Virus record (IMG/VR): IMGVR_UViG_3300033075_000538
Origin: a virus
DNA: 40,739 bases
Strand: one strand, 5' to 3'
A program made the translations under genes and the position numbers. The notes under the pieces were generated by a model. The model did not search any database. It was not told the DNA's origin and saw only the letters and a list, made by a program, of their open reading frames with translations. Shown here piece after piece: positions 27,155 to 35,459 of the stretch. Each line of letters starts with the position of its first letter. Position 1 is the first letter of the stretch.

Positions 27155-27658
27155 TTATTCCTTTTCTTTTGGCGGATCAATATAGTTATCAAAATCACTA
27201 TACGATCCAAATTTGCTCTGAATTTCAGCGAGAATTCCTTCGTAATTGGTTCCGAGCTTCTTGTAGAGATACTTCAACATATCACTATCAGAAACGTCTT
27301 GTAACATACACAGAGGGCAGTTACACGGAGAACAACCATCGTCATTGTAGTTTTCATCAAACAATTCTTCAAGGTCTTCATCTGCTGTGTCGGTTAATTC
27401 TTGGAGTTTTTCTTTCTTCCAATCATCATCCCTCCACGACTTGTCTTTGATGATCTGTTCGATTTCTTTTCGAAGTTGCTCAGGACTTGAATCTGGCAAT
27501 CCATCTTGATGATCTTGACAGAAACAATGTCCATTTACACATTGTTCAAATCCAAGATCACTGGCACAAGCATCCATGCCCGATTCTGTATTTCCACACA
27601 CGTCACAAGTAAAGGACGAGCTGGAACTATTACTGACGAATCCGAACCTAATTTTCAT
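27155..27658 (-). CDS. leader-family protein (MKIRFGFVSNSSSSSF...) with Cys-rich zinc-ribbon-like body
   Basis: Conserved 16-aa N-terminus; CDVCG...CVNGHCFCQDH...CNCPLC; paralog of 32114..32617. Confidence 0.7.
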   Translation of the reverse strand: MKIRFGFVSNSSSSSFTCDVCGNTESGMDACASDLGFEQCVNGHCFCQDHQDGLPDSSPEQLRKEIEQIIKDKSWRDDDWKKEKLQELTDTADEDLEELFDENYNDDGCSPCNCPLCMLQDVSDSDMLKYLYKKLGTNYEGILAEIQSKFGSYSDFDNYIDPPKEKE

Positions 27659-27681
27659 GTTTTATTTCCTTTGTTTATGTG

Positions 27682-28059
27682 TTAATAACCCGCTTCACTG
27701 TGTATAACCACCACAGACTTACCCTTTGCTTCTTGAAGTCCGGCGTCACACAGATATTGTTCAAGGGCATCGCCACTATCACTGGCGAAACTTCCAACAA
27801 TGACGCTGTTTCCGTTGTTGATTTCAGCCAACATTTCCTTGTATTCGTCGGCACAATACTCATTGAGAATATCTTCCTCCGAATTGTAACCGTGGTATTC
27901 CTTGTAGTATTCCAACAGTTGTTTCTTGTCTGAAATAGTCTCACCGTAATCGGCCAAGTCAACCTCAATCTCAAGTTTAACTCTGCTGTCCTTGCCCTTC
28001 ACCGCCACGATAAAGGAACTGCTACTACTGTTTGATACGAATCCGTTTCTTAGTTTCAT
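27682..28059 (-). CDS. leader-family protein (MKLRNGFVSNSSSSSF...), acidic body
   Basis: Conserved N-terminus. Confidence 0.7.
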   Translation of the reverse strand: MKLRNGFVSNSSSSSFIVAVKGKDSRVKLEIEVDLADYGETISDKKQLLEYYKEYHGYNSEEDILNEYCADEYKEMLAEINNGNSVIVGSFASDSGDALEQYLCDAGLQEAKGKSVVVIHSEAGY

Positions 28060-28062
28060 AAA

Positions 28063-28404
28063 TTAGGAAGCATATGTTCCACCCATCAAACGGGCCTTGA
28101 CTCCGGTAGCTTTTTCCAAAGCCTCAGCATATTTCTTAAGATCGTCAAAATCAACATCTTGACACTCGAAAGAACCATCGTCGGATGAACCGTCTCCGAT
28201 AACCCAACCAATGACTTCGCCACAACCCTCGTAATAGTTGTATTCCGAGTTTTTAGGAAGAAGTTTCTTTCCTTCCTTGGAAAGTTCATAGTTATCTTCA
28301 TCTACAAATTTCTGTTTAATGTCGTCACGGTCACTGATTTCAATTCCAACGGCGACGAAGGAACTGCTACTACTGTTTGATACGAATCCACTTCTATATT
28401 TCAT
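28063..28404 (-). CDS. leader-family protein (MKYRSGFVSNSSSSSF...), ~110 aa
   Basis: Conserved N-terminus. Confidence 0.7.
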   Translation of the reverse strand: MKYRSGFVSNSSSSSFVAVGIEISDRDDIKQKFVDEDNYELSKEGKKLLPKNSEYNYYEGCGEVIGWVIGDGSSDDGSFECQDVDFDDLKKYAEALEKATGVKARLMGGTYAS

Positions 28405-28407
28405 ATT

Positions 28408-28731
28408 TTATGTTGGTCTTGTTCCCATCAAAAGTTTGACGGGACGATTTGTTGCTTGATTAACTTCTGCTGAAATCTTGATGATCTCGTTTACTCCGAT
28501 TTCCATTTCCCCTAAACCCCAATCTTCACACTTACAGAGGGGTTTGCCGACGATATAACCGTCTTTGTTTTCGTCGTAATAGACAACAATTCCTTCCGGA
28601 ATCTTATCGGTATTACCATCCCACTCATCATACCATCCCATTTCCTCAAGTTCTTTCTTTGGAATTCGTGTTCCGAGAACCACGAAAGAACTACTGGACG
28701 AATTGCTTACAAAACCACTTCTGTATTTCAT
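28408..28731 (-). CDS. leader-family protein (MKYRSGFVSNSSSSSF...), ~107 aa
   Basis: Conserved N-terminus. Confidence 0.7.
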   Translation of the reverse strand: MKYRSGFVSNSSSSSFVVLGTRIPKKELEEMGWYDEWDGNTDKIPEGIVVYYDENKDGYIVGKPLCKCEDWGLGEMEIGVNEIIKISAEVNQATNRPVKLLMGTRPT

Positions 28732-28732
28732 A

Positions 28733-33878: not shown

Positions 33879-33903
33879 AAAAGTGTTCTTTCTTGGTTAA
33901 ATT

Positions 33904-34218
33904 TTAACCATTGTAACCACCGTCGATATACCAGTCAATCTTGTTTTTATCGACTGTAATGCCCAATTTAGCCGCTTCTTCTACGAGACGATCTTTGAAC
34001 TGGCCAAGAGTTTCATCATCTTTCATCTTGCCAGGATAGAATCCAATGATGTACTGATCTTCACACGAAATACCCAACTGAGCATCCAGTAAGGTTTTTC
34101 TATCCTTACTATATTTCTGAGAACTGATAGTATCGTATGTGTTCGAATCGACTTCCACACCCAAGATACAAAAGCTTGAGCTGGAACTATTGCTTACAAA
34201 TCCGCTTCTAATTTTCAT
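33904..34218 (-). CDS. leader-family protein (MKIRSGFVSNSSSSSF...), ~104 aa
   Basis: Conserved N-terminus. Confidence 0.7.
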   Translation of the reverse strand: MKIRSGFVSNSSSSSFCILGVEVDSNTYDTISSQKYSKDRKTLLDAQLGISCEDQYIIGFYPGKMKDDETLGQFKDRLVEEAAKLGITVDKNKIDWYIDGGYNG

Positions 34219-34229
34219 AGTTTATTATT

Positions 34230-34817
34230 TTAATGTTTACTGATTTGAACGTGTGGGAATTTCCTAAAAATGTTTCCGTGTTCGAAATCGCTTTCTCCAC
34301 CGTCATCAGCATATTCGAACTGAAACACTTTCATCCCCTTGACCCTGGGCCAGAAACCTTCAAGAAAGGCTTTGGCACAACAAGTTTCGAGTTTTCTTTC
34401 TGCTTTTCGTTCGGCATCATTGACTTTCTTCCAATGTTTCCGAATTTTTGGATCGGCTGTTTCATCCCAAATATCCTTACCGGTTTCAGCTTTATATGCC
34501 TCACGAATCTTATCTGATTCGTCTTCGTGTTTCCAATCGTAAGGTGGTCTTCCTGGATAATAACCACACATTACCACTTCGACGGCTTTACGCTTGTTCA
34601 ATCGAGCAGCTTTCCAATTGTCTTTCGACATATCGGAAAAAACTCTTTTGGCAATCTCGATAGTCGGTGTTCCTTGAGAGAAATCGTATGGTTGAACAAG
34701 TCCAGACTCGTCAAACATCATCTTCTCAAGTTCTTCCGGTGATGAAGGGAGTTTAGGAAACCCCACAATGAAGCTGGAACTACTTGAGTTACTTACAAAT
34801 CCACTTCGAATTTTCAT
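34230..34817 (-). CDS. leader-family protein (MKIRSGFVSNSSSSSF...), 195 aa
   Basis: Conserved N-terminus. Confidence 0.7.
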   Translation of the reverse strand: MKIRSGFVSNSSSSSFIVGFPKLPSSPEELEKMMFDESGLVQPYDFSQGTPTIEIAKRVFSDMSKDNWKAARLNKRKAVEVVMCGYYPGRPPYDWKHEDESDKIREAYKAETGKDIWDETADPKIRKHWKKVNDAERKAERKLETCCAKAFLEGFWPRVKGMKVFQFEYADDGGESDFEHGNIFRKFPHVQISKH

Positions 34818-35002
34818 TTTTTCCTCTTATCGTAATTGAACACTTCTTCACTCAGAAGAATGTATTCCCGTGGAACGAGGTATTCGGCAGTTTCTCCGTG
34901 AGGAACTACCCTAATGCTTGTTCCCAAGTCTTCTATAATATCGACCGTTTGACCAAAACAAAGGTCAAGAACCTCTTTAATAACAACAATTCCTGTTTTC
35001 AT
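34814..35002 (-). CDS. hypothetical small protein (no leader)
   Basis: 62-aa ORF. Confidence 0.4.
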   Translation of the reverse strand: MKTGIVVIKEVLDLCFGQTVDIIEDLGTSIRVVPHGETAEYLVPREYILLSEEVFNYDKRKK

Positions 35003-35003
35003 A

Positions 35004-35459
35004 TTAGCAGCTGGCGATAAGGACGGTCTTCGGAGTCACTTGAGGGTAGTCCTTTTTGATTTTCTTGATAGTATCGGTGATGGTTTTAGGATCAAATTCC
35101 CGACAACCACTTTCACTTACACGAGCAATCGAAATGCCTTGCCACCACGAACTTTGTCCATTAAACCAAACAGGACGTTTCTCGTAGTTCTCGGGAAGTT
35201 CCTCGGTGTATTCAATTTCGCTCTGAAAATGTTCGTATGCCTTGTCCCAGAAGTTACTCGGAACAATTCCTTTTCGATAGTTGTTGTAATCGGTGTTCTC
35301 CAGAGCATCAATAGCCCATCTGTCGATATCCCTTTGAGTAAAATGTCCTCTAACTTTTTGTTCGTTAGTAAGATCGGAGTTTAACTCAGCGGTGGGAAAT
35401 CCCACGAAAACAAAGGAACTTGAACTTGAGTTGCTAACAAAACCATTTCGTTGTTTCAT
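35004..35459 (-). CDS. leader-family protein (MKQRNGFVSNSSSSSF...), first gene of the array
   Basis: Track ORF extended upstream; trimmed to ATG giving MKQRNGFVSNSSSSSFVFVG. Confidence 0.65.
   Translation of the reverse strand: MKQRNGFVSNSSSSSFVFVGFPTAELNSDLTNEQKVRGHFTQRDIDRWAIDALENTDYNNYRKGIVPSNFWDKAYEHFQSEIEYTEELPENYEKRPVWFNGQSSWWQGISIARVSESGCREFDPKTITDTIKKIKKDYPQVTPKTVLIASC

Follow-up and report, generated by a model that had tools for sequence, protein, structure and literature searches.

A conserved 16-residue N-terminal tag on unrelated phage proteins and its putative radical SAM partner enzyme

Introduction

Modules in which an FxSxx-COOH (Fxs) peptide is paired with a radical S-adenosylmethionine (SAM)/SPASM enzyme were reportedly described by Haft and Basu in 2011. 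Their occurrence in STAND/AP-ATPase conflict systems is the closest published analogue found for the phage genes treated here (Kaur et al. 2020, PMC7159879). FxsB-type enzymes form cyclophanes, and AtsB/anSME oxidises Ser via C-beta hydrogen abstraction (PMC10114670). The genes treated here lie in the IMG/VR virus record IMGVR_UViG_3300033075_000538, which is one whole Joint Genome Institute (JGI) metagenome contig of 40,739 bp (hereafter, the window) and looks like a fragment of a large phage. Thirteen of its proteins share a nearly invariant 16-residue N-terminus (the tag) joined to differing remainders (the bodies). The tag is probably a handle recognised by a radical SAM enzyme encoded in the same window (20623..21828), with one enzyme serving many protein substrates. 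As judged from sequence comparisons, tag and enzyme make up a very large system, previously undescribed, that is found in phages and bacterial defence islands; no description of the motif or of the pairing was found in the open-access literature, where motif strings gave chance matches only.

Methods

Two sets of loci were compared. For the tag-selected set, open reading frames (ORFs) were called and clustered in 126 loci; for the enzyme-selected set, 78 viral loci were fetched by alignment to the enzyme, and tags were counted within 10 kb. For co-variation, 174 near-full-length enzymes were clustered at 50% identity, and the tags were tabulated per locus. A tag profile of 35 positions was built from the 13 N-termini and searched against 1.84 billion 50%-identity representatives. 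Body families were gathered from about 200 loci, in which 458 unique tagged proteins fell into 125 BLAST clusters. The AlphaFold2 (AF2) model of the enzyme was built with database homologs.

Results

A six-frame scan of the window found exactly 13 ORFs that start with the motif MK[IYLQ]R[SNF]GFVSNSSSSSF, every one of them on the minus strand, in agreement with the genes and coordinates of a first-pass annotation made from the letters alone, including an internal ATG start at 35459. Fourteen of the 16 positions (M1, K2, R4, G6, F7, V8, S9, N10, S11-S15, and F16) are invariant across the 13 paralogs. Over the first 48 nt the mean DNA identity is 64% (range, 46-88%), and identical tag residues use the same codon in 42% of cases only. 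Since the tag is conserved while its codons differ, the earlier statement that it is kept by selection on the peptide and is not a DNA repeat holds. A given 10-mer such as FVSNSSSSSF is expected by chance, by our estimate, about 5e-8 times in a six-frame translation of 40.7 kb. In the tag, K-x-R is followed by polar SNSSSSS, and it contains neither a hydrophobic core of 10 or more residues nor twin Arg, the features looked for as marks of Sec and Tat signals, and so, as had been said before, it is not a Sec signal peptide. The tag does not match the glycyl-radical motif RVxG[FWY], in which an invariant Gly carries the radical. Likenesses to a PP-loop/P-loop-like nucleotide site, a Ser-His-Asp site, pyruvoyl/Ntn self-processing, and an N-glycosylation sequon (N-S-S) were set aside as resemblance only.

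One untagged family stood out around the tag. A radical SAM family was present in 49 of the 126 tag-selected loci, usually sharing the strand of a tagged gene at a distance of 0-1000 bp, and the next commonest untagged family was present in 9. Among the 78 enzyme-selected loci, 68 held 1-13 tagged ORFs (median, 4), and all of these ORFs except one (295/296) lay on the strand of the enzyme, many starting right past its stop codon. Two of the 10 loci that had appeared empty hold variant tags outside the search pattern, which raises the count to 70/78 and puts co-location at 87-90%. When 82 enzyme loci were surveyed for other families, each was found in 11 or fewer (none >13%), the runners-up being TnpB, T4 prohead protease (10/82), GMP reductase, T4 portal, and NAD ligase; with T4 prohead protease and portal among these families, the carriers are taken to be mostly T4-like myoviruses.

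The tag also varies together with the enzyme. Position 9 is Ser in 397 of the 401 tags of the main enzyme clusters, and Thr9 is nearly limited to three enzyme clusters, of which one is the main cellular cluster; a single further Thr9 tag belongs to a second cellular cluster. At locus L196, which has a singleton enzyme, Thr6 replaces Gly6 in 8/8 paralogs; four different codons (ACC, ACT, ACA, and ACG) are used, so what is maintained across the genome is the peptide, and gene conversion does not account for the Thr6. At locus L174, position 6 is Phe or Tyr in 3/3 paralogs. All paralogs in a genome thus appear to track one genome-encoded reader.

The enzyme gene (20623..21828, minus strand; the database gene call starts at ATG 21795) encodes the cluster motif CPMTCAFC (Cx3Cx2C), then Y-K, and four conserved C-terminal Cys in the motifs DSCS, ERCES, HCSF, and RECP, which would be enough for one auxiliary Fe-S cluster of the twitch/SPASM-like kind. 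No maturase model of NCBIfam was matched at cut-off, and StsB, PapB, ScmF, KxxxW cyclase, and MftC were matched below threshold. A profile search against the PDB returned SkfB (E 6e-4) and the auxiliary-cluster region of BtrN, a cellular homolog clears the Pfam Radical_SAM and SPASM cut-offs, and the structures nearest to the AF2 model are the peptide/protein maturases SuiB, SkfB, and anSME. The family comprises >2,000 clusters at 90% identity, which annotation pipelines name 'AslB' or 'MoaA/NifB/PqqE/SkfB family'. Homologs with 36-38% identity occur in the enterobacterial T4-like phages KP15, RB43, RB16, Miro, Matisse, and Margaery (173 phage records), in KP15 at NC_014036.1 90116-91318.

The tag profile matched 22,916 clusters at E<=1e-3, a number to be read as a maximum, given how short and Ser-rich the profile is. 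The best 150 matches begin nearly all from residue 1, in proteins of 60-290 aa, and 0 of these 150 have a meaningful Pfam domain. A degenerate DNA pattern of the tag found at least 120 stretches in IMG/VR, many of them tandem arrays in contigs of 100-550 kb, and the tag is carried mainly by contigs of T4-like and jumbo phages. Both parts are present in one cultured phage, Vibrio phage D479, where five tagged 'hypothetical proteins' are encoded upstream of VPHD479_0104. Neither megablast with the region nor tblastn with three tagged proteins found a match among 50,697 phage records; the low-complexity filter masks the tag. The profile search with the leader and the survey of its neighbours, both proposed in the first-pass annotation, gave many members and one recurring neighbour, the radical SAM enzyme.

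Among 185,579 species genomes the tag pattern was found in 93 stretches only, most of them metagenome-assembled genome (MAG) contigs resembling phage arrays, and in 49 of the 93 the enzyme lies within 8 kb of the tag. One clade belongs to genuine chromosomes of bacteria (Acetatifactor muris DSM 23669, Veillonella parvula, and Lachnobacterium bovis DSM 14045) and also occurs in Verrucomicrobia and Sulfuricurvum MAGs. This version has only one tagged protein, of 137 aa (MKIRNGFVTNSSSTSF...), and its gene directly precedes that of the enzyme. In the conserved gene order, a metallo-beta-lactamase (MBL)-fold protein (PADLOC LmuA/Avs1a-like) is followed by a trypsin-like protease with a fused NACHT domain (Avs2/Avs1b-like) and a protein of 136 aa; the tagged protein and the radical SAM enzyme come next, and then an M1E1E6-like protein of 313 aa. 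Instances are L223:2423-8001, L207, L263, and about 10 further genome loci, and 13 of about 20 loci of this kind include the NACHT neighbour. The operon has the appearance of an AVAST-type-I-like defence system to which an enzyme-substrate module has been added.

In the window, the outlying tagged gene (19244..19747; 167 aa; body orthologs found in 18 loci) and the radical SAM gene belong to one tightly packed gene chain, in which the tagged gene is the downstream one and 876 bp with four small ORFs separate the two. Its ortholog in L001, a close relative of the window, begins 5 bp past the radical SAM gene. The other 12 genes form an array. In order of position, its products are a 167-aa protein with a zinc-ribbon body (CxxC...CxNGH...CPxC; 27155..27658), which belongs to the largest body family (50 members), followed by proteins of 125 aa (27682..28059; body family of 31 members), 113 aa (28063..28404), 107 aa (28408..28731), 115 aa (28733..29080), 108 aa (29858..30184), and 167 aa (30785..31288). 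Farther along are a 209-aa protein with a coiled-coil-rich body (31485..32114), the second zinc-ribbon paralog (32114..32617, 167 aa), a 104-aa protein whose body family has 39 members (33904..34218), a 195-aa full-length member of phrog_7397 (34230..34817), and a protein of 151 aa when read from the ATG at 35459, at which the motif begins (35004..35459). Two untagged genes were also seen inside the array. One (32859-33878) encodes 339 aa with the start MGCWNATCG and a Lys-rich tail, the other (29086-29682) encodes 198 aa with an N-terminal hydrophobic region and is conserved in the closest relatives only (L001 and L002); neither has a family match.

After removal of the first 20 residues, BLASTP related the zinc-ribbon pair 27155/32114 (E 2e-10), which the first-pass annotation had rightly given as the exception to a lack of mutual similarity among the bodies, and, weakly, 28733 with 29858 (E 2e-4), a second pair that it had missed. 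Otherwise the lack of similarity extends to the profile level, as profile-profile comparison (hhalign) of the 15 largest body clusters gave probabilities of 24% or less. For every paralog of the window, orthologs of the body were found in 2-53 other loci, so the bodies are old families and not recent divergent copies; one handle sits on many old, unrelated domains. The median length of the tagged proteins is about 127 aa, and the bodies are confidently folded in the one family modelled.

Nothing exceeded threshold when the tagged proteins were searched against Pfam, NCBIfam, and PADLOC, and PHROGs gave phrog_7397 only, a family of unknown function of which the paralogs match just the first ~20 positions (1-18 to 1-28). 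The exceptions are 31485..32114, whose match extends to profile position 67, and 34230..34817, which matches over the full length. In 94 homologs of the latter, K2, R4, G6-S13, S15, F16, and V18 are invariant at an overall identity of ~35%. In its AF2 model, residues 1-10 are floppy and beta-1 consists of residues 13-20, and no fold match was found in the PDB or BFVD. Among the best tag matches, many families finish in a beta-strand and a short polar tail, and the last residue is His in 19/128 and Cys in 15/128 tagged proteins (examples of endings are ...GTRxC, ...ISxH, and ...GGYNG). The C-terminus may lie close to the tag, as the C-terminal strand and beta-1 are on the same short strand list in the AF2 model.

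The remaining gene content of the window includes ThyX, an HNH endonuclease, GMP reductase, a Thg1-like enzyme, two radical SAM proteins, a Mom-like protein, a major vault protein (MVP)-like protein with Vault_3 and MVP_shoulder domains, a TROVE-like DUF2828/DUF7788 protein, and three tRNA genes. The homolog of MVP, the vault shell protein, flanks the array on one side (24656-27151), and the TROVE-like gene flanks it on the other (35572-37104). Strong terminator-like hairpins on the minus strand at 35551-35524 and 24639-24599 (stems of 12 and 18 bp, then T-runs) bracket the 12-gene array and MVP, which suggests a single transcription unit and makes co-transcription possible. The T4 late promoter TATAAATA had 2 matches in the window versus 1.2 expected and 0 inside the array, and a sigma-70-type promoter scan of the window was no better than with shuffled sequence. 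The window showed no shell gene of the encapsulin type. At least 36 further viral contigs, many of them 200-500 kb long, carry MVP homologs, mostly without tagged genes.

The Mom-family gene (21852-22616, E 1e-44) is directly upstream of the radical SAM gene (3' on the plus strand), and in L004 a Mom-like gene likewise lies between the tagged-gene array and the enzyme. Next after it in the window is an ORF of 676 aa (22613-24643) without a family match, in an AT-rich stretch (GC, 0.31-0.32 versus ~0.41 elsewhere). The second radical SAM gene (12800-13744) is unrelated (Rv2578c or 'mobile pair' type) and is not the partner of the tag. The Thg1-like gene (tRNA-His guanylyltransferase family) is at 11075-11932. 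A plus-strand tRNA cluster at 38724-39392 comprises Gly(GCC), Gly(UCC), and a 92-nt tRNA-Ile(UAU), the last being an ARAGORN call only and below the Rfam gathering score. At 1549-4351 the gene of a DUF2201_N putative metallopeptidase is paired with that of an AAA ATPase, and a DUF2201 metallopeptidase/VWA-like gene recurs beside some enzyme loci (e.g., L137).

Discussion

As its alternative, the first-pass annotation had suggested that the nearby radical SAM/SPASM enzyme recognises the tag as a leader. This suggestion is strongly supported by the gene neighbourhood, the co-variation, the fold, and the bacterial two-gene arrangement, with the qualification that 20623..21828 is the relevant gene and 12800..13744 is not. 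We propose that the consensus handle MKIRxGFVSNSSSSSF would be portable, with unrelated folded domains as bodies, 13 candidate substrates in the window and 1-13 per locus elsewhere. In a first step, the flexible N-terminal peptide of a new protein would dock on the enzyme via K2, R4, F7, V8, and F16. In a second step, the 5'-deoxyadenosyl radical would take a hydrogen within the invariant polar segment N10-S11-S12-x-x-S15. The reaction site is most probably inside the tag, because nothing else is common to the substrates, and the strictly invariant N10, S11, S12, and S15 are the candidate reaction residues. The product can only be guessed at and might be an oxidised or cross-linked residue, for example, formylglycine from Ser (anSME-like) or a cyclophane or ether link (FxsB/TqqB-type). 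That the enzyme adds a new chemical group or cross-link to a universal 16-residue handle and so arms dozens of unrelated effectors, on both the phage and the bacterial side, is put forward tentatively, as a possibility that we regard as somewhat doubtful. The tagged proteins would then be a very abundant, hitherto unrecognised class of post-translationally modified proteins, comparable to a RiPP (ribosomally synthesised and post-translationally modified peptide) arsenal at the scale of whole proteins.

Several observations weigh against recognition of the tag as a substrate. The gene neighbourhood fits a substrate and a binding partner or adaptor alike, and folded substrates of 100-300 aa are atypical for SPASM/twitch maturases except anSME. 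Four to eight of the 78 enzyme loci are without a tag within 10 kb, and no RiPP recognition element, leader protease, or exporter was found and no other conserved neighbour. The 22,916 profile matches, of which the best 150 were inspected, may include near-threshold false positives. Finally, KP15 has the enzyme homolog and no tagged ORF in the 93 of 174 kb scanned; phages of this type may have a different substrate or carry tagged genes elsewhere in the genome.

The main rival explanation is that the tag is an unmodified docking peptide that ties the radical SAM enzyme to varied bodies, each of which would lead it to a target of its own (protein, nucleic acid, or metabolite) or regulate it. 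An adaptor of this kind would fit the genomics equally well, but the strictly invariant residues N10, S11, S12, and S15 are small and polar, a pattern that reaction sites show more typically than docking epitopes do, the top structural neighbours of the enzyme are peptide/protein maturases, and the Mom neighbour recurs in 2 other loci only; we consider it unlikely.

T4 internal-protein loci combine a short conserved N-terminus with diverse bodies in tandem arrays, and the tagged arrays parallel this architecture. The tag could then resemble the T4 capsid-targeting sequence and send diverse proteins into the prohead or virion for injection, with the radical SAM gene as an unrelated neighbour. 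The carriers are indeed largely T4-like myoviruses with T4-type prohead protease, portal, baseplate, and tail genes in the flanks. Residues 1-16 of all paralogs, however, are without Glu and so offer no (L/I)-x-E prohead-protease site, the protease itself lies in 10 of the 82 enzyme loci only, and neither the 87-90% co-location with one enzyme nor the bacterial cassettes of one tagged gene plus enzyme beside STAND NTPases is explained. Capsid targeting as the function of the tag is therefore judged improbable, and a role like that of the T4 sequence may still bear on the later fate of tagged proteins.

There is little to recommend a third possibility, that the motif is no tag and belongs to the catalytic or structural core of one highly diverged fold, for instance, as a phosphate-binding loop after beta-1. 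It would agree with the model, in which S13-F16 begin beta-1, with the conserved Asp, Glu, and His near the C-terminus of one family, which could lie nearby, and with the many families that finish in a beta-strand then Cys or His. A shared active site is disfavoured by the floppy N-terminus (residues 1-10 predicted unstructured) and by bodies that have no homology even at the profile level; moreover, the C-terminal residues are not conserved between families, the AF2 model matches no known fold, and the link to the enzyme would have no explanation. We regard this as very improbable.

The main hypothesis of the first-pass annotation, a cargo-loading peptide for the adjacent vault-like shell, is rejected on the distribution of the tag versus MVP and is given hardly any credence, even though the array lies between the TROVE-like gene and MVP in the window and its close relatives L001 and L002, the hairpins would allow co-transcription with MVP (an arrangement local to this lineage), and a single tagged gene is found ~900 nt upstream of MVP in 3/36 MVP loci: 33/36 viral MVP loci lack a tagged gene within 10 kb and 0/36 have the enzyme, MVP and the TROVE-like gene are each present in 5/126 tag-selected loci, the tag is vastly more widespread than phage MVP, the distant T4-like/KVP40-like arrays L003, L004, and L005 are without MVP or TROVE within 10 kb, and tagged genes occur in very many phage loci without either, which the annotation had itself named as counting against it. 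An attractive association with a vault-like shell is thus corrected, and on present distribution MVP and the TROVE-like gene are best described as lineage-specific neighbours of the array, possibly co-transcribed and not generally linked to it.

Recognition of the tag by the radical SAM enzyme, if the link holds, would mean that thousands of 'hypothetical' phage genes, including phrog_7397 and families without a Pfam model, share one biochemical logic, and that a large orphan radical SAM clade gains a defined, easily synthesised substrate of 16-20 residues (e.g., MKIRSGFVSNSSSSSFIVGF). That the pair lies next to an AVAST-type-I-like STAND NTPase in bacterial isolates points to a part in phage-host conflict. 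The tag-enzyme system appears to be a module of biological-conflict systems, and the expanded arrays in T4-like and jumbo phages are plausibly host-takeover or counter-defence effectors. Culturable carriers are available in Veillonella, Acetatifactor, Lachnobacterium, and Vibrio phage D479. If the proposal is true, the handle, being short, invariant, and indifferent to the domain that follows it, could become a portable, genetically encodable tool for enzymatic protein tagging.

Compared with known systems, the logic of one maturase and many leader-bearing precursors is that of the RiPP maturases (SuiB/StrB, SkfB, CteB, and PqqE, and the multi-precursor logic of Nif11/NHLP). An adjacent radical SAM protein with an auxiliary-cluster domain, a shared segment with variable remainders, and co-variation of enzyme and segment are all found here as in RiPP systems. 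Short precursors and a leader protease or exporter, which are typical of RiPPs, were not found in the tag system (median length, ~127 aa; no such neighbour). Here the substrates would be folded proteins of 100-300 aa that share a 16-residue N-terminus only, the modification would probably be in the 'leader' itself, and the carriers are lytic phages. The action of one maturase on whole proteins, as proposed here, is known from anSME/AtsB on sulfatases. The tag differs in being without the (C/S)-x-(P/A)-x-R motif, the four conserved C-terminal Cys would correspond to one auxiliary cluster versus two in anSME, and the tagged proteins are not sulfatases and are mutually unrelated. With the T4 capsid-targeting sequence the tag shares its short conserved N-terminal position, diverse bodies, tandem arrays, and T4-like phages as carriers, and it differs in having no prohead-protease site, in its link to a radical SAM enzyme, and in its additional presence in bacterial chromosomes. 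From the Fxs modules the system is set apart by a motif at residues 7-11, N-terminal and not C-terminal, by no FxsB match in NCBIfam, by no metallopeptidase processing gene, and by phage arrays that have no Fxs counterpart. It resembles them in the pairing of a short F-x-S-x-x (here, F7-V8-S9-N10-S11) with an enzyme of the radical SAM/SPASM type, and the bacterial tag-enzyme pair, like theirs, is located beside a STAND NTPase in an apparent defence locus.

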